64,000 nucleotides of DNA from Euglena gracilis (taxonomy: Eukaryota), in the NCBI GenBank assembly GCA_039621445.1, contig CP154954.1:23944954-24008953 (forward strand). The letters are read 5' to 3'. The notes under the pieces were generated by a model. It was not told the DNA's origin and ran no database searches. It was given only the letters and a program-made list of their open reading frames with translations. The stretch's first letter is position 1. Each line of letters starts with the position of its first letter. This document shows positions 12,414 to 64,000 of the stretch, in pieces. The position numbers were made by a program, and so were the translations under genes.

Positions 12414-26506
<14,093 letters not shown>

Positions 26507-46299: not shown

Positions 46300-47433
46300 G
46301 GATCTCGGTACTTGGGCACTCACAACATAGCTGGTGTTTTTTTTTGTTTTTTTAAAAAAAACGTTTTTTTTTGTTTTTTATTAAAAAAAAAACAGGCAAA
46401 AAAAAACGGCAAAAAAAACAAAGGGGAAAATGATGGTCCAAATTTTGCCTTTGATCGCAAGGGTGAACCAATCTTAGCTCAAATGACTTGAAAACCAATA
46501 CTTTTGGAGGTCTTCAACAAGAATGGTCAAAATAGGGCATTTTTCTGCCATTTTGGGATGTTTCAACTTGAAACATCCCAAATTTGGTGTCTTTCTCTGC
46601 CTGAGGATGCCTCTCTCTGCCTGCCTGAGGATGGGCAAAAAAAAAGCTAAAATTAAAGGCAAAAAATTTTTTTACCCTGGACCCTCAATGGCGTTTTTTT
46701 TTGTTTTTTTTAAAAAAAACATGTTTTTTAAAATTTTTTTAATTTTTTAAGTGCCAGCTATGAAATTTCATGATTGTGTGGTGCAGTGGGAGCGACTCAC
46801 AATTTAAAGATGTCGCGGACACAATGGGGACACCACCGGACTGGATTTGGAACACAAATATCCCCTGGACAAACGCCAGACTGCCAACCGGGAGGGGGGG
46901 ACCAAGCCCGAAAGAATCAAAACAGAAAAAAAAAATTATTGTGAGTTCCGCTGCGCTGAACACCCGTCCTCGGATTGTGGTTGGGCTGCCAAACTGTGCG
47001 CAATCCACCGCCTGAGTGGACATTGACGCCCCCTGCCAACAAGCAGCAGACGCAAATTAGCTGGAATTGGAACAATATCCACTGGCAAGAGTAGCCAGCC
47101 TGTCTGAGATGTGCGCTATGAACTACATCCATTCCTTGAAATCTGGAAATTGTGCCGCCCAAGGGTTGCCTAGAAACTCGACACACTTGGGCAAGAGGTC
47201 GCTGAAGGATGTATACCCTCCCCTCCAAAGCAAGCCTGCAAGAAACTCGACAACAATTTTGGCAAGATCGCATGAAAGCCCAGAGATACAAAGAACTGGA
47301 AGCAAACTGGCAGCTACCGAGATTTGTGTCACAAGACCTTACAGTCTGTCAACCCAGGGGCCTGGCTAAATTGTCGCCCTTCCCAAGCGCTTGGAACCCA
47401 GATGGAACATGTTGACCATCGCCTAGCACTCCA

Positions 47434-47709
47434 GTTAGCATTGGGTATCTTTCGAAAGATTGGGAAAATATGTTTCATTTCAGAAATTTTCCGGAAATAT
47501 TTCGGAAATTTTCGAAAAATGAAATATATTGCCTTCATTTTTGCAACCATGAAGGATACACCAGGACCTCGCCATGGTTTTCCTATTCAAGTAGGTTGAC
47601 GGGAAGGGTCCATATTTCAAATCTTTCAACGAGGGGAAAATATATTTCTGAAATTTCATGAAGTATTTCAAGTGAAGTATTTCAACATTTCTTTCGCCGC
47701 AATGCTAAC
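47434..47709. mobile_element. 276-bp AT-rich MITE
   Basis: TIR GTTAGCATTG/CAATGCTAAC, TSD TCCA; excision restores the host reading frame. Confidence 0.85.
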
Positions 47710-47804
47710 TCCAGTGGTGGCTCGGGCTCCCACTGCTCAACCCCAACGAGGTGGGGAGCACTTGTGCCCAATGTGCAGCCTGCTTGGATGCATGGGGAGA
47801 CCAT

Positions 47805-49375
47805 GGAGGCTCGGCGCGCCGCTCGGGGGGGTCCGGGACCCCCCCCCCCGCGCGGCCCCTGCGCGGCCGCTCGCCCCCCCCCTCGGACCCCCCCTCCCCC
47901 CACTGTGCCTAGCATAGCCAAGAAAAAGGCATTTTTTTGAGCAAAAAAAATGGCCCAAAAATGGCCAAAAATGACCACTTTTTGGACCCGAAAATGGGCC
48001 GCGCGCCGCCCGCGCGGCCGCCCTCGCAGGGGTGTAGAAGTAATTTTTTCTCGGGGGCGAGATCCTTGACAAGGCCCAATACAACATTGTTGTTGTTTTT
48101 TGCCGCCCGAAGGGCGGCGAGACGGTAGCGCTTTTTGGCATTGAATGTGACAAAAAACGTGGCAATTTTTGGCACAAATCCATCACAATTTGGAAGCTTT
48201 CAAGCCCAACGCAAGGGAAGGTGATGAACAAAAAAAAAAAAGAGTTGCCGCCCGAAGGGCGGCTGGACGGTAATGCATTTTCCCAAAAAGGTTCCCCAAA
48301 AAGAGCAAAACTTGTCAAAAAAAAAGCCTTGCTTTCAATTTTGAAAAAAAAGCCAAGTCAACATACATGTGTTTCTTGTTACCACCTGAAGGGCGGCGAA
48401 AAGGCAGTGGAAAAATTCACAAACAACAACCCAAATTGAAAAAAGAAAGGTTTCCGCCCCCTCCGACCCATGAGTTCTGGACTTGTTTTGCAGGGGTGTG
48501 GAAGTAATTTTTTCTCGGGGGGGGGAGATCCTTGACAAATGCCTAATGTAACCATTGTTTTTTTTTTCGCCGCCCGAAGGGCGGCAAGACAGCAGCGCTT
48601 TTTTGAAAGATGGCATTGAATGTGACACAAAATGTGGCAATTTTTGACATCATGGCACAATCCACCACAATTTCGACATAAGCCGCCCAACGGGCGGCAG
48701 GAGACGGTGATGCCTTTTGTGTTTTGAGATTTCAAAAAAAGGGATTTCAAAAGGAGTGCAAAATGCGGAAAAAGAGACGGTAATGAGAGTTCCCTCCCAA
48801 AACCCGCCCCCTCCGAGCTGTTTTGCATGGAACAAAAAAAAACGTATTGCCGCCCGAAGGGCGGCTGGACGGTAATGCATTTTCCCCAAAGGCTTCCCCC
48901 CAAAAAAGCCAAATTTGCAACAGAAATGGTGTGCTGTTTAAAATTTCGAATTTCGAGGCCAAGTCAAGGTGTATGTGTTTCCTGTTGCCGCCCGAAGGGC
49001 GGCGAGACGGCAGCGAGATACTCACAAACAATTGAAAAAAGAAGAATTTCGCCCTCCGACCCATGAGTTTTGGACTTGTTTGGCCGCCCGAAGGGCGGCG
49101 AGACGGTAGTGACCTCCAACAGCAATAACACCAAAAGGTTCAATGAAAGTTGAGCTTTTAATGTAATAAATTGAAAAGGCACAAAGAATGTGGTGAGAAA
49201 ATCACACACTTTTCAAAAAAAATTCTTTCTTTCCAAAATCTCGGGGGGGCGGCCGCCCCCCCCCCCCCCGACCCCCCACTTCTACACCTATGCGCCCTCG
49301 GCCCCCCCCCCCCCGCGCGGCTGCCCGCGCGGCCGCTCCCCCCCCCTCAGCCCCCCCCCACTGTGCCTAGCCTCC
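47805..49375. mobile_element. Non-autonomous TIR element (GGAGGCTAGGC family) with repeated GCCGCCC-GAA-GGGCGGC hairpins
   Basis: CAT|GGAGGCTCGGC...GCCTAGCCTCC|CAT; excision restores GDHAVTC. Confidence 0.88.
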
Positions 49376-49899
49376 CATGCAGTCACCTGCAAGGCCAATG
49401 GTCTAACCCAACGCCACACCATACTCCAGGACTAGCTACTTGCCACAGCACGAGAGGCTGGTATTACCTCCTCTAAAGAAGCCCAACTACCTCCTGATGG
49501 CTCCCGACCTGGTGACGTGCTCTTTCACACCTGGCGGGGTGGACCACCCTTGGCTATTCATCTTACTATTGTGCACCCATTACGACCTTCTGAACCCCGC
49601 CCCTCACCAGACTCTGTCAAGAAAATGTTACTACGTGAAGAACAAGCAAACTCAACAAATATGCGGTGGCATGTGAGAAAGTCCAATGGGACTTCAAAGC
49701 ACTAGTTTCATGAAATTTGGTTTGTATAGTCAAGCCTGTTAGGGAAAAAAAGTCCACAAGAATATTCCTGGAAAGAATCCCAAAGTGGTGGCAAAGTCAT
49801 TTTTTCCTTGTCTTGTGCGCCGTGTTGACCAAATGGTGAGCCATAATCTCAATCTCATCTGGAGTGGTTTGCTTTGTTGTGGTCGGCTGCACCGTTTGC

Positions 49900-50920
49900 C
49901 AACAGCAGGCTTTGTGTTTGCCCTTTTTGTTTCATTTTTTCCCTCGTGCAGATTTTCAACTCAACAACAGTTGTGTTCTTCCCCCGCTCCGCTTCAAAGG
50001 AGCAAGCGTGGCTTTTCGGAAGCGTGACACCATTCGCCGCCTGGTGGGCAAGGCCTTGCTCCACACTGGTGCCGCCAAGGATCAAGTGAGCAAGCTGAGT
50101 CCCCTGCAAGTGGGTGTCGGGGTTTCCCATCACAGCCTGGCAGGCAAGCTTACAGGGTACGGCACCTGGTTTCGCTCGGACTCCCGGAATCAGGAGCCGG
50201 TAGGTCCTTCCGCGACCGTCAAGGATTGCGCTGGTGGTACCACGGGGAGCTGTTGCCGTGGTCCATTTTGGCACTCTTGCTCCTGCCGTGGGGTGATTGC
50301 ACAAAATTCTCCTTGGCTCTGTGGCCCAAAACCATGAATTTCGGCAATCGCTGAGCGTACCCGGGACTCTAGTCCGTCAATGACCATGATTTGTTCAGCT
50401 GCAGATGCCCCGGGGTCCCCGTTCAAATGGGGAAAGGGCATGATGGCCTGGAGCAGGCGAGAAAAGCGGCGCCGAGAGCACTGGGAACCAAGATCCGCAG
50501 AGTGGTTGTTCCATTTGAGGCGAGCAAGAGCTTTGCGAGGCTGAGACCATGGGGAGTTGGTACGCCGTGGCGAGGGGGTCCGAATAGGGGGGGGGAGGGG
50601 GGAAATGGCCGGAAAATGGCGTGGCGAGGGGGTCTCGGATGGGGGGGGGGTGTACCATGGTTGCACAATGAAAAATGTGTTGGGTGGCGTGGAGAGGGGG
50701 TCCGGCTAGGGGGGGGGGAGGGGGGGTAAAGGCGTGGCGAGGCCCTCGGAGAGGGGGGGGAGGGGTGTACCAACCCCCCCATTTGGACGCCCTCCTGCTG
50801 GGGGCAGGATTTTGTGGGGCCTGGGTTGCTTTCCATGTCGGCACAACTGGCAAAGTGTTTGCCCCTTCCAAAGCGGCGGGGGGTGGTGTCGTAAACGAGC
50901 AGCAGGGGGGTTGTGCCATA
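49900..50920 (-). pseudogene. Decayed coding remnant with a 2A-like motif; host of the Gypsy insertion, continues at 60101-~60230
   Basis: The frame reads through the empty target site: ..LKDRKNTQYG|TTPLLLVYDTTPRRFGRGKHFASCADMESNPGPTK. Confidence 0.55.
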
Positions 50921-51247
50921 TGTAACTTTTCTCCTTGAACTGGAACTTCTCCAAACAACTTGATTGTTCGAGAACTTGAAATCTCCTACCTCTTGTTATA
51001 TTCTTGTCCAAGGTAAAGCCGCAGGCAAAGCACGTAATGTGCACTGCCAAACACGAAGAAACCACAGAACCAAAACTGTGAAGAGGAGGTGAGAGGAATG
51101 TACAATTACAGTAGCGAAACTGTCCGCGAAGCAGTTGATAGTGAAATCCTCAGCAGCAGGGAGCGGCCAAGGAGGAGACATCGCAAAGCGACGCCTGGGT
51201 AAGGGAAAAGTGATCTGTCCACTGGTAAATCAGGCTACGGCGTTACA
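50921..51247 (-). repeat. 3' LTR (327 bp)
   Basis: Near-identical to 59772-60100, with a few substitutions and one short variable tract. Confidence 0.97.
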
Positions 51248-51260
51248 ATCTCCCCCTCGC
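51248..51260 (-). promoter_or_regulatory. Polypurine tract
   Basis: GCGAGGGGGAGAT abutting the 3' LTR. Confidence 0.85.
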
Positions 51261-51468
51261 AAACAGGCAGGGCAGGTTTGCGACAAACGACGCGTTTCTC
51301 AATGGGTTGCCTACTGAAATTCAGCATCCTCAGCAGAGACTTTGGGTCTGGATTGGGGTCAAAGATCAGAAAACCTTGAAGGTACTCACCTCAGGCTTCC
51401 ATGGGTTCCTACTGGATCCTCTTACGGAAAAGCCAGGCAGGCACTCAAAGTTGAAGAGTGTGGTTTGC

Positions 51469-53147
51469 TCACTCATCAGAGAAGCAAAACAGGGTGGCCA
51501 TGCGGACAGGAATTCGGGAGGCAAGGTCTTGAGCGTTTTTCAGCGGGACATTCAAACTCTTGGACTCGCAATAATCCACAAAAGCTTTGGTCAGACAACC
51601 ATCATTGTGGATGAACGCTTTGATTGGTTCCCAAGTTGCGTCTTGGAGACCATAGCCTTTCCACACAGTCAGGAACCTCCAACCTTGTTTGTACTTATGC
51701 GTCTGGATGGATTCAACTTCAAAAAATCCATCTTCTTCAGTGTTGGGTTCCTCAGGTGGGACTTCAGGTTGGTTTGCCTCATCCCGAACGGAAATTTCTA
51801 CTTCGTCTTCATTGTCGCTCAGTTCTTCAGGCTGGTTTGGAAAATGCTTCAGGAACTCGAAAGCGACTTCAACTTCACCTCCCAGTTTCAGGGACGCTCT
51901 CAGAGAAACGGTGGAGTGCTTGACTTGGATGATTCGGAAAGGACCAAACCATTGGGATCCCAGCTTTGCAGTTGGCCATTGGGGAAACCGGTTGCGATGG
52001 ACCAGGACATAGTCATTGACTTGATAGACAGCGGTTGACCTTCCACGGTTGTTTCTCTGAAGCGCCTTTTCTCTGAGAGCTTTCAGCCGTTGGACAGCGG
52101 ACTCTTGAAGAGAAATTTGGTTGGTGATCCAGGTTTGGACATTCGGGTTGGCATCAGGCTCAGGGACAAGGTCAGGTTGCCAGGCGGGTCGACCGAAGAA
52201 AAGTTCAGCGGGGCACAGTTGGGTTGATGAGTGAACTTGGTTGTTCATTATCCAGGGGAACAAGGCGAATCCAGTCCTTTGATTTTTGGCTTGCCATCAA
52301 ACACCGCATGTTTTGTACGAAACCCCGATTCATCCTTTCGCACAAACCATTGTTCTCAGGCCTTCGGGCGGTTGAGAAATTTACTTTCACTTTCATGGCC
52401 TTCAGGGCGGATTGCCAAAATCCTCTTTCTGAAACGAAACGCACATCGTTGTCACTGAATATCTCTTTGGGGCGACCGAACTTCTGAATCCACTCTCTGA
52501 ACACAAGTTCCAGAACACCTTCGGCATCGATCCGTTTGCGGCAGGGGATGAACTGGGCAAAACGGGACAAACCACAGACAATTGTCAAAATGTAGTCCTT
52601 GCCAGCATATTCATCCATCGAGATGAAATCAAAATACAAAATTTCATTCACCATCGAAGGGATCGGCAATGCACCAACTAATCCTCGGTCTTTGGCTGAG
52701 TTTGGTTTTGCTTCAGCACAGATTCTGCAAGACAAAATGGTTTTCCGAACTTCTTCCATTAGGTCTTTCAGAGTCAAGTCAACGTGGAAATTGCTTTTCA
52801 GGAACCAGGTTGTCCTTTCGATTCCAGGATGTCCATTGATCGTGTGGCACCAGACAATTGTGTCAGGCAATTTTCCTTTCGGCAGAACAAGCTTCTTTTC
52901 ATTCCACAATTTGTTCTCGTCGCGGTAAAACATGGTTCCGTCAATCAGGGTTGCACTGTGAGGTTGGATTCTCCCCCAAACTGGTGCATACTCCTCTTGA
53001 TAGTCCTGGGCGCAAAGGTCCTTCATTTGTTCCAAAGCCTCCATTCTGAGATCAAGTTGGATGTCCATTCTTTGGAAAGCTTGGCGAGCCAGGTCCTCAC
53101 TGTCAGCTTGGAAAAGTTCACAAAAATTGTCACGGGAGAGCATATCA
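51469..53147 (-). pseudogene. Integrase (HHCC, DDE, GPY/F) plus chromodomain, frameshifted near 52260
   Basis: HTINGH..CRIC; YFDFI..FSDND..GLCERMN; WFGPFRI; FEVESIQTH..FLTVWKGYG..DATWEP. Confidence 0.93.
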
Positions 53148-53152
53148 CAGAG

Positions 53153-54578
53153 GGGGCGGACGGACGGACGGACGGACGGCTGGTGAAAATTGTGAAGGTC
53201 CGGACGGACGGCTGGCCTTGTGGGCTTGGTCCAGACGGCTGAAGAAAATTCAAAAGGTCCAGCTAGCCGGCCGGCCGGCTGGCCGGCTGGCCGGCTAGCC
53301 GGCTGGCCGGCTAGCCGGCCAGGTCTTTGGAAGCGCAGGCGATGAAAAAACGCGAACAACACGGATTCCTATTTCATTACCTTTTGTCACACAGTGTCCG
53401 CAACCTCCTGGAGATGCCATCTGGTTCCCCGCAATTGATACCTACATATCCAGTATTTTTTGCCGAGCCTGTTTCACCACCGCTTTGCTTACCACGTACC
53501 AGTTTCTGGTTTTGCTGTCCATTGTCCATTGGTGTACCCATGCCATGCTGGAGCATTACTTTTTGCTTTTACTGGAGCATTGCAAGTAACTGCTGGGCCC
53601 CAGCAGCCCCTCACAAGCCCACCAGCAGTTCTAATTGCCACAGCTGTTTGTTTTACGTATCCAGTGTCGTGTTTTGCCCTCTGCAAATCTGGAAAAGGGA
53701 TGGTGGCACATCTGCTGGAATCACCTACCCCCTTCCACCAAAACTTTGGGCCCCCCAGAACACCCCCAGTCATTGGGGGATGTGCACCCAATGCCCATTT
53801 CACGTATGGGTTCGCCCAGGGGTTTCCCCCAGATTTGGGACCCTCCAATTCTGGGATGGGTGTGACCTTGCCCCAAACCCGTTTCAGTGGCAGATGCCCC
53901 CCCTTGTGGGACAAGGCTGTCAGAAAATTAACTGCCACACTCCTGCCCCCCCTGCAGGGAAACATGGTTTTGGCACCCCCCTGTGCCCCAACCCCGGGTA
54001 TGTTGACGACCAACCGACACATTGCAGAATGTGGCCCCGTCACCACTGTGGAGCTGAATAAGCATCTGAATATCATTTGGTAGAGATGGGCAAGGGCAGA
54101 AGATAAATGGCACTTGTCAATACATCGTCAGTGTAGTTCAGCGGTCAAAGTGCTAGGCGACGTCTCTGAAGACACGGGTTCGAATCCCGGGCGCCGCGGG
54201 CGAATTTACGTTTTCACTGGGGCGGGAAGAATAATTTTCATAAAAGTACGCGGACGAGAATGGTATCGCCCCCCGTGGTGTAGCGGTCGTGTGGTTAGCG
54301 TGTGATTGGTAGGTCGCGGGTTCAAATCCCGCCGGGGGGCAGTTTTGTGCTTTTCTTGTGTTTTTCCTGATTTGACACCACGAGGAGAGGGACGCCGTTA
54401 CTGCTTTTCAGGGAGAAGGATTTTTTTTTGTTTCCGGCCGGCTGGCCAGACAGACATTGGTCCGGCTGGACGGACGGCTGGCGAAAAAATCGAAGGTCCG
54501 GACGGACGGCTGGGCGTCCAGCAAACGTCCGGCTGAAGACGTCCGGACGGCTCGGACGGACGGACGGCCAGCCGCCCC
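53153..54578. mobile_element. 1426-bp non-autonomous insertion at the end of RNase H
   Basis: 5-bp TSD CAGAG, short TIR GGGGCGG/CCGCCCC, (ACGG)n and (GGCC/GGCT) subterminal repeats. Excision restores KNEL-CDMLSR. Confidence 0.88.
54268..54341 (+). ncRNA. tRNA-like Pol III cassette (pseudo-tRNA); a second, more degenerate one lies at ~54127-54198
   Basis: Acceptor stem GCCCCCC/GGGGGGC, T-arm GCGGG-TTCAAAT-CCCGC and A-box-like TGGTGTAGCGG. The D and anticodon stems do not pair well. Confidence 0.6.
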
Positions 54579-56257
54579 CAGAGTTCATTCTTGGCACCAG
54601 GGATGTGATGGATGTGGAGTCGGAACTGGGACAGGAAAACCCACCAGCGTTTCAGTCGGGCATTTTCAGGAGGGTTCCCGCGAACAAAGTACGACACGGC
54701 AGCTTGGTCACACAGCCAGACAATAGGCAGGTGTGAGAGGATTCGGCGTTGGGACGCAATTCCCAACACCCCACCCAGCAATTCTTGTTCGTAGGTAGCG
54801 TAATTCTGGCGTGCGGGGGACCATTTCCAATTGAAATGACCGAGCGGTACGAGAACTTCGCTTTCAGTGTGGGTGTGTTTCAGGGTTCCATCACGGTTGA
54901 CTCCGGTCACAGCACCAAATGACTCAGTTTTGTCTTTGCTCAACTTTTGCCATTGGTAGAGGCTTGCACCGCCACCAACATCAGAGGCATCAGTGACAAT
55001 CAGAATTTCTCCATCACTGTTGGGGACTCCCAAATTTCTGACATCGGCAAGTTTGGCTTTCAAGGTCTCAAAAGCAGATTGATGTTCATCGGTCCATTTG
55101 AACGGAACACCCTTTTTGGTCAGGTCAGTCAGAATGGCTGATGTGAAAGAGAACCTTAGGATGTGGCAGCGATAGAAGTTGAGGGCTCCGAGAAAACGTT
55201 GAAGGGACTTGAGATCTTTCACTTGGACACGCTGCAAAGCCTCAATATTCTTTGTTGAGGGTTTCCACCAGCCATTTTCCAGTTGATATCCGAAGTACTC
55301 CAGACTTTGTTTCATGAACTCACGCTTGCTACGTTTGATTCTGAGGTGATCTTGTCGGGCGACTTCGAAAAACTCTCTCAAAATCTCATGGTGCTGTTCC
55401 AACGTGTGGGTTCCAATTCCAACATCATCAAAGAAGGCGGCAACCACACATCCTTGCTCCAGGAGTTCCTTGGCTTTGGGTCTGCGTCGAAAATCATCGA
55501 TGACTTTGTTCATTAGCTCTTGGAATACTCCAGGGGCATTGCTCAAACCAAAAGGCATCACCCTCCATTTGTACACGCGTCCATTTGGCAAAATAAAGGC
55601 AGTCAACTCCTGGGCTCGGAGAGTCAACTCCACCTGCCAAAATCCAGAGCGCATGTCCAGTTTTGACTTGAAACGCAGGGCGGCCAGGCCTTCAACAGTG
55701 GCTTCAAGGTCCGGCAGAAAACCAACGTGGGGTACATTTTTGCCATTCAGCTTGCTGTAATCACCAACAAGCCGTTTGGTTTTCGCAATTTTGGTTTCTT
55801 TGCCTTTGTCCTTCTCCACCAGGAATGAGCGAGAACAGAATCTTGGAAAATCTGAACCCTTGAATTCTTCCACCAATCCAGAGCTGACAAGTTCCTCAAC
55901 CTGTCTTTCCATCTCCAAAACATCAGGCTTCGGCATGGGAAAGCATTTCTCACGAACAGTCGAACCTTGAAATTCAGGTTTTAGCTCCAGATCCATGGAT
56001 ACCAGTTTCTTGCAGGTACCAGGGGGTGGCAATTCTCCAAAAACATCGGAAAATTCTTGTAGGATCGATTTGATTGTGGGCTCTGCGTCCAGCTTTTCCA
56101 ATTCTTGATTGAACTCGCCATGCAAAATGTGCGATTCCTTCCACTGCTTTTGGGTTGCTTGCATTTGAAGATGTGTGTGCTCCTTTGGGTTGAACAGGGA
56201 TGCAATTTGTTGGAAATCACTTCGGCAGGCGGGAAACGGGGAAGAAGGTTTGGCCAC
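54579..56257 (-). pseudogene. Reverse transcriptase and RNase H
   Basis: KLDMRSGFWQ, MPFGLSNAPGVFQ, AFFDDV, LQRFLGALNFY, VTDASDVG, NYATYEQELL, LCDQ, HIPGAKN. Confidence 0.96.
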
Positions 56258-56617
56258 TCTCCCCCATTGGCGAATTGTCGAACAACGGTTGAAACATCTT
56301 GGAGCAATTCGGAAATCTGAAAAATTTGTGAGTCCACTTCACGGGTCAGTTCAGCCATGAACAAGTCCAAATCCCAGGTTGAATCAAGCTCAAAATCGTC
56401 TTTCAGGGAAATTGGCGAGAGTTCAGGCAGTTTGGGCTCACAGGGCTTTGATGGTGTGCAGGGAACAGGCGGTTTTGGCTCTTGGGCATCAACTTCCACA
56501 AAGACCTCCTTTGGTTTGTGAATGGCTTTCAGGTCAGACAAACCAAGATTTTTTCATCTGCGATGGAGGTGTGCCAAAAGTCTTGGGTCAAGCTCAGACA
56601 CACGAATTCGGGTGCCG

Positions 56618-56860
56618 TTTGGCCCTGTCCATCCCAATTTTGGTCAATGTCTTTTCCAGTTTGGACCACGGCGGATTTGCCCACAGAAACTCAGACTCAT
56701 TGGCCATCAATTTTGACCAGTCATATTTCCATGCGCTGCTTTCCTTTGAACAGTGGAGCAATTCATGGGCATTGCCTTGTGAAGCAAACAGGTCCACTCG
56801 GATTTTGGTTGGTTCAATTCCAAGATCATTCGCAAAGTGGGTAGCAACTGATAGCTTTCA
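56618..56860 (-). pseudogene. Dam-like N6-adenine DNA methyltransferase module, C-terminally deleted
   Basis: ESYQL..(frameshift)..VDLFASQGNAH..CSKESSAWKYDW..FLWANPPWSKLEKTLTKI, containing the DLFAS and NPPW motifs. Confidence 0.8.
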
Positions 56861-56899
56861 GTGGCAAACATTCGATACATGGAGTAAATGTGTCCTTTT

Positions 56900-57226
56900 T
56901 CCTCACGCAAGGGAATTGCCTCATCACCAATGACGAGACGGGCAGGACGAAACAGGATTCCAGAAACTTTGGGGTGGTTCAGGAAATCCATACCAAGAAC
57001 AGCATCGAACGTGGTTGTGTTCAGGACAAGCAGCTTTTGGTGAAAGTCGTTGTTCCCCAGATGCAGGGTGGTTTCAGCAACACCTTCCGAATACACAACA
57101 GTTCCATCGCCCATCTTGACAGGGACTGCCTTTTCTCTTTGGACAAGAAGCCCTTGGGAGAAACGGGTTGAAATGGCAGACGTGGTGGCCCCGGTATCAA
57201 GAACAGCCGACACATTTCTTCCACCA
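56900..57226 (-). pseudogene. Retropepsin-like aspartic protease
   Basis: AVLDTGA..FDAVLGMDFL; same frame as gag. Confidence 0.93.
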
Positions 57227-57409
57227 GAAACCGTGTTTGGGCCGATTTTAAGACTTTAAAAGTCTTAAATCTTCGCCCAAAACACGGTTTCAAACAAGAA
57301 CAGTGTTTTGGGCCAAGGTTTTAGGGGGGCCAGGGGCGACCGCGGCGCCTTCGGCGCCGCGGTCCCCGCCCCTGGGCTCCCCCTAACTCTTGGCCCAAAC
57401 ACAGTTCTT
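57227..57409. mobile_element. 183-bp TIR insertion at the gag/protease junction
   Basis: Inverted ends AACCGTGTTTGGGCC/GGCCCAAACACAGTT. Removal gives in-frame NIVS-GGRNVSAVLDTGA. The TSD is unclear. Confidence 0.65.
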
Positions 57410-58581
57410 GACACAATGTTGGTTTCCAAATACAACGTGGTGCTTGGTTTTCCCAGATATGAAATGGATTCGAATTTGCGCTTCTTTCCAGGGTCTTCCC
57501 GAGAATTGGGGGGCGAATTGGCAGGCAAGTTTGACTGTGTGGCAGGACGGGGCGGCTGAGGCGATGATTGATTCAGACGCTTCTTGTCCTCACGTTTTTT
57601 CGTCCAACAGGCATCCTCATAATGGCCGACACGCTTGCAGTATTTGCAGGTTATTTTCGCCTTGAAATTTGGCTCGTTGCTGCGGTCTGCGGGGGGTCCA
57701 CGGCCAGAGGGTTTGTGTTGGTTGAAACCTTTGCCTTTGCCTTTGCCCTTGGACTTGCCTTTGCCAGGGTTGGTCGAACTTGGCTCATCACTTTCCCCAA
57801 TTAAGTGGATTTTGGCAGACTCCTCACCACCGAAGGCTTTGGCTTGGGATTACAGAAAACGTTCCAGGGCATCGTCGGTGACTTTCTTTCGCCAAAATTC
57901 TTTCACGGAATCAAAGGTCGAACATTTGTCACGGTTGTGTTCATCAGCTCTCATGTCTTTCCATTGCAGGGGGTGAATTTTGGACACAAGCATTAGAAGC
58001 TTTTCTTGCTCACCCAGGGCATCAGGGGACATCCGGGACAAAATGTCAGACATTTCCACAAACAAGGCTTCAAGCTCACCGGGGGAAGGTTCTTTTGACA
58101 ATTGGGGAAGCTTGGAAAGTTGGGCTCGGAGCAAAATGTCATTTTCAACCTTCGGGTAAACTTGCATCAGACGGGCGACAAATTCAGAAAGTTCATCCAC
58201 TTCTTCGGCAAGCCGTTCGACGACTCTCAAAACTTTGGGGGTTGAGGCGGCGATGGCCCAATCAAGTTGAATGCTGTCGGGCTGGTTTTCCACTCCGGTG
58301 AGGCGCATCCATCGTGAAAATGAGCGAAGCCAATATTCTGCATCCGAACCGTCAAACTTTGGTAATTCCAGTCCAGGCACACGAGACACAAGACCAGGCT
58401 TTCGTTCAGTGTCGGAGGTGTCAGCAGACTTTCTGGTGATCAGTTTTGGAGGTCGGGGGGCGAAGGGTGACTGGGTAGTTGAGTGTTGCGAAACATGTGG
58501 GCTGCTTAATTCAAGTCCGGCGAGGCGGGCTTCAAGCTCAACAATTTTCTGTGCAAACGACTCTTCACCAGCGTCAGACAT
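57410..58581 (-). pseudogene. gag with CCHC zinc knuckle and an in-frame TAA at 57850-57852
   Basis: ELPKFDGSDAEYWL; reading past the stop gives CKYCKRVGHYEDAC. Confidence 0.9.
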
Positions 58582-59757
58582 TTTTTCCGTTTTGGTTCAA
58601 TCACTTTCTGAGTTGCAGGGTTGATAAACAGGTTGGGCAAACGGTCGCTCAAAATCGAGGTTTTGTTGCACTCAAAATCGGATATTCTGCACTCAAAATC
58701 AGAATGGGCTGCACTCAAAATCAAGGACAGACAGCCACTCAAAATATGGGGGGGGGGCAGGCTGGCAGGTTGGAAATGCAAACAGACTTCGTTGAAACTG
58801 GGTATCAAACTGTCCAAACAAGTTGCACAACAAATTCAGAGTTGAGCAAACAAACAAGGTTGATAACCACACCTGCAGAACAAAACCTCCAAGCAGACTT
58901 TGTAATGTTTGGGTTGAAAAGTTCAGAAACAAACTGACAACCAACTTTGGTGCAAAGAACTTTGGCAAACAAGTTGGCAAACAGACTTGCAGAAATTTGT
59001 CAACAATTCTGATCAAACAATCTGGCAGACAGACTTCCAAAACAGAATCCCAAATCAGACTTGCCGACAATCTGTCAACCAACTGCTTGCCAAAACAGCG
59101 GTTGTCACTCAAAATCCTGGGGGTTGGTTGGTCAATGGGGGGATTTTGGCAAGCAGCTGGTCCAGGGGGGGCTGGTTGGCACTCAAAATCCATTTGTGTT
59201 GGTGTGGCAATCTTCCAAACAAACTTCCAACAATCAAACAGCAAACAATCAAACCAACAAACTTCAAGTTTTCTGTCAGACAGACTTCCAAAGTCCAGAA
59301 ACACAGTTTCAAACAAACAAACTTGCAAGAAACAAGGGCTTGGAGAGAGATGTTGTGAACAAATGTCCAAATTGAATTGTCACAGTTTTGGCTTTGCAAT
59401 TCAGAACTGCAGATTGAACAGTCCAAACAACCTTGCAAACAGAAGTGGTCAATGCAAATGCCAAAATCAATTTCAGAATCTGAATTCCAAAATCTCTCTC
59501 CAACAATCTTTCTGGGGGGGTCGCAATGTAACACACTGTCGCTATGTACAACAGTGTAACAGTGAAGTACAGCAAACGTTCTACCTCCTCCGGCGACTCT
59601 GCACCCAGAACTTGTTGTCCTCAAACTTGAAAACTTGAAAGATAAGGCCCCAGTGGCCACAGCAAATGCCAAAACCAGCTTCAGCCAAAACTGCTCTGTA
59701 CGAAGTCGAGATTCCCCAGCAGCTGACGACTGTCGACAGCACGTAGGATCGTAGTAC

Positions 59758-59770
59758 TCCTCTGCTACCA
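59758..59770 (-). promoter_or_regulatory. Primer-binding site complementary to the tRNA-iMet 3' end
   Basis: TGGTAGCAGAGGA, one base from the 5' LTR. Confidence 0.85.
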
Positions 59771-59771
59771 A

Positions 59772-60100
59772 TGTAACTTTTCTCCTTGAACTGGAACTTC
59801 TGTAAAAAAAAATTGATTGTTCGAGAACTTGAAATCTCCTACCTCTTGTTATATTCTTGTCCAAGGTAAAGCCGCAAGCAAAGCACGTAATGTGCACTGC
59901 CAAACACGAAGAAACCACAGAACCAAAACTGTGAAGAGGAGGTGAGAGGAATGTACAATTACAGTAGCGAAACTGTCCGCGAAGCAGTTGATAGTGAAAT
60001 CCTCAGCAGCAGGGAGCGGCCAAGGAGGAGACATCGCAAAGCGACGCCTGTGTAAGGGAAAAGTGATCTGTCCACTGGTAAATCAGGCCACGGCGTTACA
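59772..60100 (-). repeat. 5' LTR (329 bp)
   Basis: TG..CA ends; matches 50921-51247. Confidence 0.97.
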
Positions 60101-60231
60101 CCATATTGTGTATTCTTCCGGTCCTTCAAAGTGGCATTCGGCTGGTCAGATTGCTGTCCGCTATGGCCTTCCAACTGAGAAACATGTTCTGAGGATTTAG
60201 GAGAGAGGGGGGTTGCGTCCAACAGGATGGG

Positions 60232-60809
60232 GCCAATTGGGGCCAGATTTTCTGGAAATGTCTGGGGGGCTGGGTCCAGCAGGCTGGGGTAAACTGGGGC
60301 CGGACGTTTCGGCCAGAAGTTTTTGAAATATGAGGGGGGGATGGGTCAAGAAGGCTGGGGCAAAATGGGGCCAGCGGTTTTGGAAATGTCTGGGCGGCTG
60401 GGTCCAGCAGGCTGGGGCTGTGGCCTGAAAAGGCCCACAAAGCACCATTATTAAGTGCAACTTTCTCTCTCTGTTGCTTTTTCTTTTGCTTTTGCTTTAC
60501 AGTCAGTCTGGAAGTCTTGTTGCAATTTTGATTGCAAGTCCCCAAAACTGGTCCCCATTCATTCCAATCTGATGGGGGTGCCTCAAACTGCTGGACCCAG
60601 CCCCCCAGGCATTTCCAAAATGTGTGGCCCCATTTTGCCCCAACCTGCCGGACCCGGCCCCCCAGACATTTCCAAAACTTCTGGCCCATTTTGACCCAGC
60701 CTGCTGGACCCAGCAGCCCAGACATTTCCAAAATTGCTGGCCCCATTTTGTCCCGGCCTGATGGACCCATCCCCCCCCTCATATTTCAAAAACTTCTGGC
60801 CCCATTGGC
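60232..60809. mobile_element. Foldback-like element: inverted arms built of ~60-bp subrepeats
   Basis: Repeats of ..GGAAATGTCTGGGGGGCTGGGTCCAGCAG.. on the left are mirrored by CTGCTGGACCCAGC..CAGACATTTCC on the right, around a spacer. Confidence 0.7.
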
Positions 60810-60969
60810 ACGTGCTGCTGAAAAGTTGATAAACCAAGGAATACGTGTGCCGTGGAGATTGCTCAGTGCAACTTTGAGTCTTGGGTCGCAACTGCCAGTG
60901 AAAAAAACGAAAGAAATCAGCCAGACCAGGCCTACGTCAGAATCAATTAGGAATTTCGGGGGTTTATTT

Positions 60970-60995
60970 ACTTTCTGAGTGTCTATTTTTTTTCG
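60970..60995 (+). other. Genomic copy of the 26-nt Euglena spliced leader, fused to an ORF 5' UTR
   Basis: ACTTTCTGAGTGTCTATTTTTTTTCG matches the Euglena gracilis SL as I recall it. It is followed by TCTGCATAATCACC-ATG, not by a GT donor. Confidence 0.92.
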
Positions 60996-61009
60996 TCTGC
61001 ATAATCACC

Positions 61010-64000
61010 ATGGCTGTAAAGGGGCCGGATGGCCCTCCAGAAGACCCCAAGACTCAAGACAATACACCCCTTGTCAACCAAGCTGCTACCACAACCAACC
61101 CTTCAAGTACACCTACTGTTGCAGTGGACACCGGACAGTTGGAGCTGCTGGCCAAGATGTTGTTGCCGCTGTTGGTGCCGGTGCTAACCACTGCTGTGGC
61201 ACAACGACTCACTACCGCCCTGTACATAGTGACAGAGAAAGTCAAGACAGCAGCTCACAAAGAAGGAAGAGGACATGGCAAGAGAGGGAAGAGCATGAAG
61301 AGTACCTACAGAGAAGGTTTGGAAGAGATTACAAGCCCCCATGGCAGAGAGGTCGACCCAGTTATCATATATCTCAACAGAGTTCTCCACAGCCCCAGCT
61401 CCATCAGCAAGTGAGTCTGGGGCCCCCCTGTACAGCAAGCCCATCAGTGGGCATTCCACAGTCAGGCCCATCAGTGAGCATTCCAATGAACAGCCCATTC
61501 CAATGCCCACCAGTTGGTAGAAGTCAAGTATGTCCATCTGTCACATCAATCATACAAATGTACATTCCATCACAGACCAACCTTTGGGGTGAACCCCTGC
61601 AATCTCAGCAACCACTGCAATCAAACTGGAGCAGAGAAGATGACCAGAGGAAGAATTGGACCAGAGAAGAAGAGCAGAGAAGGAGAGAGGCTGAACTCTT
61701 CAGAAGCCTCAGAGCCTTTCTCAGCACAGGCCAGAGTACACAAGTCCCCCCCCTCCCAACACCATTACACAACCCTGGCCTGCCACCATCACCCTTAATC
61801 CCAGATGTGGTACTGGCATCACCATCAGCCTTCCAATGTAGTTTTCTGCCTGCAGCTTTCCCTTTTGTCTCACAAAGTCCCCCCCAAAGAGGGGACAACT
61901 CAACACAATACCTTCACCCAGTAAAACAAGTGGATCAAGAATTTCATCCCAAGGCAACTCCAAATCAAAAGCAGTCAGCAAAACAACCCCCCCCACCCAA
62001 AAGAGGAGGATCATCAACCCCAGCCAAATGCAACCCCAAAAAATCTCAGCACCAGCCCCCCAATATCAGCCCCCCCTGCAAGAGGGGGGGGGCCAGGCCC
62101 ACCATTTCGCATTTTTAAAAATCCAACAAAACCCACCATGTTTGATGGCACACAGTGGGCCAAACTGGGCACAGTGATCCTGCAGGAGGAACCCAGCCCC
62201 TTTCAATGGCAAGACCCCCCCCAGGCAACTGATTTACCAGCCTCCCCACCCAACACCCCCCTGGAAGGGGTCCCAGTTTGGGAAACACCAGAGTTTCGGA
62301 CCCTCAGGAAAGAATTTTTTTGGAGAAGGCGCATGAGACAGCAAGCAGGAGGCATTTTATTTCACGAGAAGGTCGCCAGAAAACTGGCAAACATTCAGGA
62401 AAAGTGGGTCGACATTGGCAGAACAGTGGACATTCGGCAGTCACAAAAAATGGTGCACACTGACATGAAACTCACGTTGCCACTGGCAGCGCCAAAAGTT
62501 GTGCAATCGCCCCCCCCACCAAAAAAGAACCTCACCCTGGAACGGATCAGAATCGCCCAAATTCTTCATCAATACCGACCAGAGGAACAACGTGAGGAGG
62601 GACTGGACATGTCGCACATAAAAAACGTACGCCGAGCTATCGCACAAAAAATCAAACAAAAAGTGCCAGCAGCAGAAGCAGTCCGCCCCCCGAGGACAAA
62701 GAAGAGGCTGACACCCTCCCGAGAACCAACCCTGCCCATTGCCTGGCGATACTGCCCAAGAATTTGGCTGATGGATGACATGCCCAGACCGTTACAGTTT
62801 GCGTGTGAGGTTGGATTGGCTGATCGTCTTTCCCCGTCCGTGTGGACCACCAGCGATCTTGATGACTCAAATGACTCCCTGTCGGACTATTATTCTTGTG
62901 CTGCCACAAAAAATTTCCACATGGCAGAAACAGTTGGCACCATACACCTCTGCACTGCATGCCCACACGGGGGGAAGAAGCCGGAAGACGCATATCTGAA
63001 GACGGGGCGAGGTGATTCCCTGACAACAATGGGTGATGTGGAAACCAATCCAGGCCCGCTGACGGCATTTAATGGACCCTGTGGTGAAGTCATGGATCTA
63101 TTGGACCAACTTGTTGCCATGAACATGACTGATTTCTTTCGGATCAAGGCTAAAATACCACTGCGGCAAGGCCCCGATGGCTCCTCCCGTTCACTTCTTC
63201 CCAAAGCTACATACTGGCTGAAATGCACTTTGTGTGACATTGAAACCATCACTGCCTCGGCAGGTTGGTGCCTGCACCACAGGGAAACCTGCCCTGTTTT
63301 TTCAGCCACAGTATATCCATCTACTGAGACAGCAAAAGTACACTCCGTAACAAGCCGAGGATACCCCCAAGAACAAGGTCGGGAAAGGTTTTCAGAAGGA
63401 CACCAGCCGAATGGAAGGGGGGAACGAATCACCACCCATGGTGACGTCCAAACACAACCAGGGCCCATCTACTTCCGTCTGGCCACCATGGAAAGACCGA
63501 CAATCCCTATCTCCAGGGGACTTCAAGAAAATTTCATTCGGCACAGACTGCTGGCGAGCCTTCAAGAGGTGGATGCAGAACTTCAAACTTTCCGAGACAC
63601 CTTCCCTTCCGATGTCCTTGTTGAGGACGCTACCGTCTATGAGCTCACCGAATGTTGGGAAGTTTTGAGAGGAGTTCTGTTTGTGCTCATAGGGCTATGG
63701 CCACATCGACCACCACGTCACGACTCCCCATCGAGTGTGCATGCCATTATGTGGTTGCTGACCTGTTTATGGTCCGAAGTATGCAACATCGGCGAGGCCT
63801 TTCACTTCTACCTGCCCCCTATTCACCTAATGGCACTACCCAACGTTCTCCGGCCGAGAGGCACTTTCCCCAGAGTACCTCCAACGGAGCCCTCCTCGTC
63901 CGACCTCTGCCCATTGAATGTACACACCGTTGATATCCTGGACATCATGGCCTTGTTACGTCCGACAAGATCAGTAGTTTCAGTTGACCGTCACATCCGG
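61010..64000 (+). CDS. Long intronless polyprotein-like ORF with two 2A-like motifs; probable retroelement 5' part, runs off the right edge
   Basis: ATG at 61010, with inferred compensating frameshifts near ~61230-61260 and in the poly-C at ~61990. The frame is stop-free from 61925 to 64000 (missing from the ORF track because it has no stop). It contains GRGDSLTTMGDVETNPGP (63005-63058), CTLC-x13-H-x3-C and GRGERITTHGDVQTQPGP (63413-63466). Confidence 0.75.

Follow-up and report, generated by a model that had tools for sequence, protein, structure and literature searches.

A zinc-finger module between a canonical and a degenerate 2A-like site in an abundant retroposed element of Euglena gracilis

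Introduction

Can ribosomal skipping at 2A-like sites divide a single open reading frame (ORF) of Euglena gracilis into several proteins, and what kind of genetic element would carry such a frame? The question is raised by a stretch of 64,000 nucleotides of the E. gracilis genome (NCBI GenBank assembly GCA_039621445.1, contig CP154954.1, positions 23,944,954 to 24,008,953 of the forward strand; hereafter the window), the 3′ end of which holds two consecutive frames, ORF1 and ORF2, behind a spliced leader (SL) that is encoded in the DNA. ORF2 contains two 2A-like motifs on either side of a small zinc-finger module. At 2A sites, the nascent chain is released after a glycine and translation resumes at the following proline, a mechanism called StopGo (PMC3708506). 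The original prediction, made from the letters of the window alone, was that skipping at these motifs cuts ORF2 into several proteins, as could suit an organism whose mRNAs each need an SL and yield one ORF.

The locus is best read as a “2A – zinc finger – 2A” cassette carried by ORF2 of a retroposed Euglena element that is transcribed and very abundant. The element most likely represents the 5′ portion of a non-long terminal repeat (non-LTR) retrotransposon of the R2-like group (restriction-like endonuclease type) whose reverse transcriptase (RT) would lie beyond the window; the probability of this reading is put at roughly 0.6. If it is correct, the locus is a case from nature in which 2A sites delimit protein cassettes of a cellular mobile element, it sets a naturally decayed 2A beside an intact one so that the two can be compared mechanistically in a common context, and it defines a marker family for the annotation of the repeat-rich Euglena genome. 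The coordinates of all features are collected in Table 1.

Table 1. Features of the window, in order of position
Feature	Coordinates	Strand	Remarks
R2-like endonuclease fragments	47276-47909, 49436-49702	+	matched by profile of relatives
R2-like RT fragment	49840-50334	+	matched by profile of relatives
Third 2A site, GRGKHFASCADMESNPGP	50816-50869	-	ORF split by LTR-retrotransposon insertion, resumes at 60101-60222 (-)
Ty3/gypsy chromovirus-like LTR retrotransposon, complete	50920-60100	-	330-bp LTRs 97.3% alike; target-site duplication CCATA
LTR retrotransposon content: gag	57850-58581	-	plus RT/RNase H, integrase, chromodomain
Euglena spliced leader encoded in genomic DNA	60972..60995 (may begin 60970)	+	5′ end of retroposed element
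ORF1	61010..62118	+	~370 codons in RNA contigs; P/Q-rich basic protein; frameshifted in this copy near 61213
ORF2	62138..64000	+	at least 621 codons, open at window end; encoded protein = P0001
2A site 1, GRGDSLTTMGDVETNPGP	63005-63058	+	ORF2 residues 290-307; canonical D-V-E-x-N-P-G|P
Zinc-finger module	63059..63412	+	ligands C363 (63224-26), C366 (63233-35), H381 (63278-80), C385 (63290-92)
2A site 2, GRGERITTHGDVQTQPGP	63413-63466	+	ORF2 residues 426-443; degenerate 2A copy, E->Q and N->Q

The Two 2A-Like Sites of ORF2

Both motifs lie, as predicted, in the frame of ORF2, which begins 19 nt 3′ of the ORF1 stop codon, and they are separated by 136 codons. Site 1 has the complete class A consensus, in agreement with the fit to D(V/I)ExNPGP originally noticed: its GDVETNPGP (63032-63058) is in frame, is followed by 314 further open codons of ORF2 and is aligned with the canonical 2A sites of the relatives described below, while the codons of its G|P junction (GGC at 63053-55, CCG at 63056-58) place the predicted separation between G306 and P307. 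Site 2 reads GDVQTQPGP, is identical to site 1 at 12 of 18 residues and departs from the class A motif D-(V/I)-E-x-N-P-G-P; because E and N are both replaced, it is classed as a degenerate copy and not as a 2A. The tract upstream of the motif is SLTTM at site 1 and RITTH at site 2, and SLLSC or SLLTC in most relatives.

Shuffled sequences rule out a chance origin of the motifs and, through the profile of the finger core given below, of the finger as well. Searched as a strict DNA pattern, DVExNPGP has a single match in the window, and 100 dinucleotide shuffles gave no match at all. The broader regular expression put forward with the original prediction, run in six frames, recovers three sites in the window (the third on the minus strand at 50816-50869) and none in 100 block shuffles.

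Published mutagenesis bears directly on the two forms of the site. No substitution at D12, E14 or N16 retained activity in deep mutational scans of P2A and F2A, with the exception of E14H, and the Leu positions of both peptides were intolerant of change (bioRxiv 10.64898/2026.09.24.754024); 2A-like retrotransposon sequences mutated at E were likewise inactive when assayed (PMC3708506). These results fit the early suspicion that the second motif, lacking E and N, might be leaky or dead. Judged from its sequence, site 1 is canonical and probably skips, and site 2 is probably dead. As ORF2 is translated, the newly made ...DVETNPG of site 1 would block the peptide bond to Pro307, an N-terminal product of 306 residues would be released, and the ribosome would resume at Pro307. 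Site 2, having lost Glu and Asn, would probably allow no skipping, so that in this lineage the zinc-finger module would remain attached to the downstream protein as its N-terminal domain; by analogy with the relatives, that protein would be the RT. In those relatives, the module would come free as a separate protein of about 100-150 residues. The proposed division of the frame into several proteins is plausible at site 1, but the finger would be joined to the protein downstream rather than set free.

Conservation of the Cassette in R2-Like Retroelements

A phmmer search of 1.84 billion representative proteins returned seven relatives of the ORF2 protein. The only close one, P0002, is 94% identical over residues 66-489 (26 of 424 residues differ from the window), and the match to the other six is confined to residues ~286-444, with 32-39% identity and E-values of 1e-8 to 5e-4. 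One layout is common to all six (6/6), namely GRGxxLLxCGD(V/I)ExNPGP, about 55 residues, a C-x(1-2)-C-x14-H-x3-C finger and another 2A. A profile built without the row of the window matches ORF2 residues 290-443 from end to end (92.3 bits), and the regular expression C-x(1-2)-C-x(10-18)-H-x(3-4)-C locates the finger 15 times, in 13 of the 30 proteins, at a distance of 47-58 residues behind a 2A, with two extra matches further downstream and two in fragments without a detected 2A. Site 2 is aligned with a canonical downstream 2A in every relative of the family alignment A2 that reaches that far, and its degenerate form recurs in P0002; among the 29 proteins other than that of the window, almost all sites keep NPGP, and a regular expression found no Q before P-G-P outside P0002. 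By these sequence comparisons, the 2A sites and the finger form a single unit that is conserved in distant relatives, where the flanking sites are canonical.

The nature of the relatives became apparent among longer proteins, where a profile search gave 27 matches, eight of which (8/27) carry a precomputed RVT_1 domain. Five of these RVT_1 carriers (P0011, P0013, P0018, P0019, and P0025) are aligned over 65-100% of the cassette. The long relatives are polyproteins of 1273-1849 aa encoded in one ORF, with two to four canonical 2A sites. A domain scan of five relatives detected RVT_1 in all of them (E 1e-12 to 9e-15) and a Dam-like domain (NPPF) in four; an SLBP-type RNA-binding domain is sometimes present, and P0018 starts with one (Pfam E 2e-13). 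Their C-terminus contains a CCHC motif and an RPAD...D.T region. A profile of eight full-length relatives has its best matches of solved structure in R2 proteins (E 1.2e-16), LINE-1 ORF2p following at E 2e-4. In the relatives, about 400 residues or more separate the cassette from the RT downstream of it, and the zinc-finger and Dam-like cassettes occur in differing order (P0011, P0013, P0018, P0019), a variability that suits units each released by skipping. Single sequences proved less informative: P0011 alone had no match among PDB sequences and P0001 alone none among the longer proteins. Scans of metagenomes with P0001 and P0009 returned no related loci, nor were any found in viral contigs.

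The Zinc-Finger Module

The ligands of the finger are spaced C363-x2-C366-x14-H381-x3-C385. The spacing of x13 originally given points to the neighboring H380, which is variable (Y in nearly all DNA copies owing to 63275 C>T, at 13695/13757 depth in DNA run X1, and D in P0002), whereas the ligand that never varies in the family alignments is H381 (numbered H92 in A1 and A2). In the 12 rows of A2, the four ligands and a Pro (P346 in the window) are invariant, and the preceding Gly (G345) is nearly so. Stripped of both 2A motifs, the finger core still scores 48.2 bits with the profile, compared with 12.1 bits for the best of 2000 shuffles; homology of the cassette is therefore independent of the short 2A motifs.

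In the AlphaFold model of the module, the core consists of a helix, three strands and a helix with pLDDT above 90; C363 and C366 are modeled at strands 69-74 and 80-83, which form a hairpin, and H381 and C385 in the helix at 87-95 (module numbering). A Foldseek search with this model gave nothing at E <= 0.001, the best matches being double-stranded RNA-binding domains at E about 1, and the top VIA score (Z 4.0, which is below the noise level of the tool) pointed to spliceosomal U1C/matrin-type and TUT zinc fingers and to double-stranded RNA-binding domains. On the question of a U1C/matrin or C2H2 type, Pfam returned only sub-threshold C2H2 matches, in the relative P0006. The spacing does not correspond to the C-x2-C-x4-H-x4-C of retroviral or gag-type CCHC knuckles, and Pfam gave no zf-CCHC match. 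An RNA-binding finger is a lead offered by the model and the fold searches and not a finding; the module would most likely be a nucleic-acid-binding zinc finger that serves the ribonucleoprotein of the element.

A Retroposed, Abundant and Transcribed Element

The 24 nt of the Euglena SL are present as an exact match 14 nt upstream of the ATG at 61010. The match is the sole one in the window, has no counterpart in shuffles, and consists of the same letters as an E. gracilis SL-specific primer (PMC5654406), in accordance with the predicted SL-using organism. In the RNA-type runs X15 and X16, many contigs have 60970-61003 in common but differ beyond it, a sequencing adapter directly precedes 60967, and the depth of the bin containing the leader is 794 and 1470, respectively, as opposed to single digits elsewhere. 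The leader is joined straight to the 5′ untranslated region (UTR), with no SL-RNA intron, and Rfam indicated no 5S or SL-RNA gene nearby. Insertion into an SL-RNA gene, in the manner of CRE or SLACS, was rejected on both grounds. Being encoded in genomic DNA, the leader marks the copy as reverse-transcribed from a mature trans-spliced mRNA.

The element is also extremely abundant. DNA run X1 contains 2354 contigs that match its 3.1 kb (1133 at 99% identity or more, 790 at 95-99%, and 431 at 90-95%), with a summed word depth, which is not a copy number, of 35,000-105,000 in all 30 bins, and 14 DNA-type runs of one organism contain half or more of the words. With its 2354 DNA contigs and its encoded 5′ leader, it has the character of dispersed repeats copied from mRNA, as looked for in an R2-like retrotransposon. 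RNA covers 27 of 30 bins in X15, 15 of 30 in X16 and 13 of 30, including the cassette, in the metatranscriptome X19; contigs from RNA libraries, namely X16 records 21 and 22 and X19 record 27, span the cassette with an identity of 95-99+%. Between 61732 and 62043, there is no RNA cover in any of the three RNA-type runs. The locus is not an ordinary cellular gene but one decaying copy of a very high-copy retroposed element, and its mRNA appears to hold two ORFs and not one, as had been supposed.

Decay of this copy is apparent from ORF1, which is frameshifted. The ATG at 61010 opens frame 2, which stops at 61412, and frame 1 is open from 60976 to the TAA at 62116-62118; GCTG, inserted after 61213 in all three RNA-type runs and lacking in the window copy, joins both frames and restores ORF1. 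The contrast between the RNA-type runs and X1, where the insertion is absent (see below), may reflect either the expression of a rare intact subfamily or a strain difference between runs. Run X16 also shows two GT..AG joints in ORF1, at 61314-61379 and 61527-61576, by which 64 and 48 nt are skipped; the 48-nt skip form occurs in one X1 DNA contig as well, and the 64-nt skip would shift the frame. These joints may be small introns, in which case some copies may have been retroposed from spliced RNA. ORF1 has no Pfam match above noise.

Weighing the Readings

Assignment to the R2-like retrotransposons is encouraged by fragments of that family in the same window (47276-50334). Several observations weigh against it. 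There is no RT signal between 60900 and 64000, and the window ends 178 codons after site 2; these 178 residues match neither the profile of the relatives' pre-RT region, which gives 1.7 bits or less with the parts of ORF2, nor the full-length profile A3, which in six frames matches only the cassette within 60900-64000. A likeness by eye of residues ~450-520 to the conserved pre-RT motif of the relatives was dismissed, being unsupported by either profile. ORF1 and ORF2 1-289 have no relatives apart from P0002 by phmmer and blastp, so that the element could be a different one, possibly non-autonomous, that shares the cassette only. For ORF2 1-289 and 444-621, Pfam detected no families and no relatives were found apart from P0002; blastp of ORF1 and of the ends of ORF2 against the 29 other proteins gave nothing below E 0.26 except P0002, and the ESM Atlas had no usable match for residues 444-621. 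As for skipping, site 1 is preceded by a tract with a single Leu, against two in most relatives, which makes the efficiency of the site uncertain and possibly low. In P0002, the last P of site 1 is replaced by L, which indicates that copies do lose the site, and the frame is shifted after residue 489; both changes imply that copies are decaying. The GCTG at 61213 is absent from all contigs of X1 (0 of 52,455 depth), hence most genomic copies may share the defect of ORF1. Finally, the evidence that purifying selection acts among copies is weak: among the 33 listed variants of ORF2, beside which 77 more places are unlisted, 13 are synonymous and 20 are not, and 13/33 exceeds an expectation of 24% at p = 0.035 and one of 30% at p = 0.16.

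These points give some room to a non-autonomous element or retroposed gene family, copied in trans by other RTs, that captured its cassette from an R2-like element. In favor of this account, which is unlikely but deserves serious consideration, no RT is seen, ORF1, ORF2 1-289 and ORF2 444-621 lack relatives among RT-bearing proteins, the frameshift of ORF1 is common to most DNA copies, as expected with trans amplification of defective copies, and the varying order of the cassettes among relatives makes them mobile between contexts. However, the distance of ~400 or more residues between cassette and RT in the relatives means that the absence of an RT within 178 residues says little, two ORFs with a 19-nt spacer are LINE-like, and RT and endonuclease fragments of R2-like type lie in the same window. 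A two-ORF layout with a short spacer is typical of long interspersed nuclear elements (LINEs). The host SL at the 5′ end and the extreme copy number speak against an endogenous fragment of an RNA-virus polyprotein that uses 2A sites, as does the fact that all long relatives aligned over most or all of the cassette carry RT and not an RNA-dependent RNA polymerase; neither a viral domain (Pfam) nor a match in viral contigs was found. Such a viral origin is thus barely credible, even though 2A sites are commonest in RNA viruses (literature including bioRxiv 10.64898/2026.09.24.754024) and a weak match, P0027, has a virus-like layout with several 2A sites.

Two further alternatives concern the activity of the sites. 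On the one hand, both could be active, provided that Euglena ribosomes tolerate D-V-Q-x-Q-P-G-P, and a free finger protein of 136 residues (P307-G442) would then be released, as in the relatives. The degenerate site 2 is found in the window as in P0002, with 26 differences in 424 residues between them, and therefore predates their divergence with G-D-V and P-G-P kept; moreover, non-canonical “class X” peptides with high activity have been reported (bioRxiv 10.64898/2026.09.24.754024, 2026). This nevertheless appears quite improbable, given that substitutions at E14 and N16 inactivate P2A and F2A, except E14H, and that site 2 has both changed, that E-mutated 2A-like sequences of retrotransposons are inactive (PMC3708506), and that the 29 other proteins keep NPGP almost throughout, with no Q before P-G-P outside P0002. 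On the other hand, neither site might skip, both being relics in a dead repeat family whose frame is open only through the youth of its copies. The broken ORF1, the NPGL and frameshift of P0002, the weak evidence of selection and the weakened hydrophobic tract of site 1 would all agree with this, but G-D-V-E-x-N-P-G-P is complete at site 1, RNA-library contigs cross the cassette at 95-99+% identity, and ORF2 remains open for at least 621 codons, and we hold loss of skipping at both sites to be just as improbable. The reading as the 5′ part of an R2-like retrotransposon that skips at site 1 is retained. A wider scenario is possible, though it is put forward tentatively: R2-like retrotransposons of SL-using protists would build their proteome from exchangeable 2A-bounded cassettes (among them an SLBP-like domain, a Dam-like methyltransferase and an RNA-binding module of the zinc-finger type), the order of which varies because each is released separately. 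The finger module would be an ORF1p-like chaperone made by StopGo, and the Euglena member, copied from SL-capped mRNA and among the most abundant repeats, would be starting to fuse the module to the protein behind it by losing one 2A.

Comparison with Known Systems

The multi-2A polyproteins of R2-like retroelements from public assemblies (P0011, P0013, P0018, P0019, P0020, P0023, P0025, and P0030) contain the same cassette, at 26-37% identity to the window, and the same 2A type, GRGxxLLxCGD(V/I)ExNPGP. They differ in that two to four canonical sites, a Dam-like (NPPF) and sometimes an SLBP-type domain, the RT and an R2-like C-terminus are assembled in one ORF, whereas the element of the window has a degenerate second site and an ORF1 of its own ahead of ORF2, with neither a Dam-like domain nor an RT in view. 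R2 proteins themselves (9nl3_A, 9dou_A), matched in two stretches by the profile of the relatives, have N-terminal zinc fingers ahead of the RT, and no RT is seen in the element of the window; neither 2A sites nor a Dam-like domain are known from R2. The T2A of Thosea asigna virus, the context of which is a viral capsid polyprotein, has the GRG start, the G-D-V-E-x-N-P-G-P core and the length of site 1, but its upstream tract has two Leu and that of the window one. CRE, SLACS, and NeSL are LINEs with a restriction-like endonuclease that insert into the SL genes of SL-using organisms; they interrupt SL-RNA genes, whereas the complete leader on a 5′ UTR found here is the end of a retroposed mRNA.

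Trypanosoma is, like Euglena, a member of the phylum Euglenozoa. The trypanosome elements L1Tc and Ingi, together with other APE-type elements, likewise have a class A 2A in the N-terminal part of a retrotransposon ORF, and mutated inactive copies are common (PMC3708506; Heras 2006 as cited there). These elements have one 2A near the N-terminus and mostly a single ORF (PMC3708506); the window differs from L1Tc and Ingi by its R2-like relatives, by 2A sites that bracket a folded finger module 290 residues into ORF2, and by the presence of ORF1. A DNA-encoded 5′ SL also marks copies of mature mRNA among dinoflagellate retrogenes (PMC12014239). These are cellular genes of another phylum, as opposed to a very high-copy Euglena element (PMC12014239).

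The presence of 2A sites in retrotransposons, including those of trypanosomes, is already known, and hundreds of RT-associated 2A contigs are counted in recent surveys. In the literature searched, “Euglena” and “NPGP” do not co-occur, and the main texts of the 2A surveys contain neither “Euglen” nor “zinc”, with supplementary tables, outside the search, that may list such sequences; a preprint that deals with Dam-bearing retrotransposons makes no mention of 2A. Three features appear to be new: the host, Euglena; a folded finger module that regularly has a 2A site on either side and that Euglena has in common with R2-like elements; and a repeat of very high abundance whose 5′ end encodes an SL. 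A link of the 2A-bracketed finger cassette to R2-like elements with a Dam-like domain was not found in the literature searched.

Other Elements of the Window

Upstream of the element, the window contains further mobile DNA (Table 1). The R2-like fragments are out of protein order and therefore represent at least two truncated or nested copies. What follows the third 2A site, GRGKHFASCADMESNPGP, resembles the R2-like relatives: a run rich in Pro and then a broken piece of C-x-x-x-x-C form. Within the LTR retrotransposon that splits its frame, a weak Dam-like piece (56597-56857; Pfam E 5.7e-5, below the cut-off) fits the “DAM-LTR” elements of Euglena (bioRxiv 10.64898/2026.05.21.726589), and a borderline tRNA-like match (54269-54340, +; 29.1 bits against a gathering score of 29) lies on the opposite strand. 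Two inverted arms (60203-60418 and 60580-60810), which are 76-92% alike and consist of short tandem units, sit between the minus-strand 2A element and the SL of the plus-strand element.

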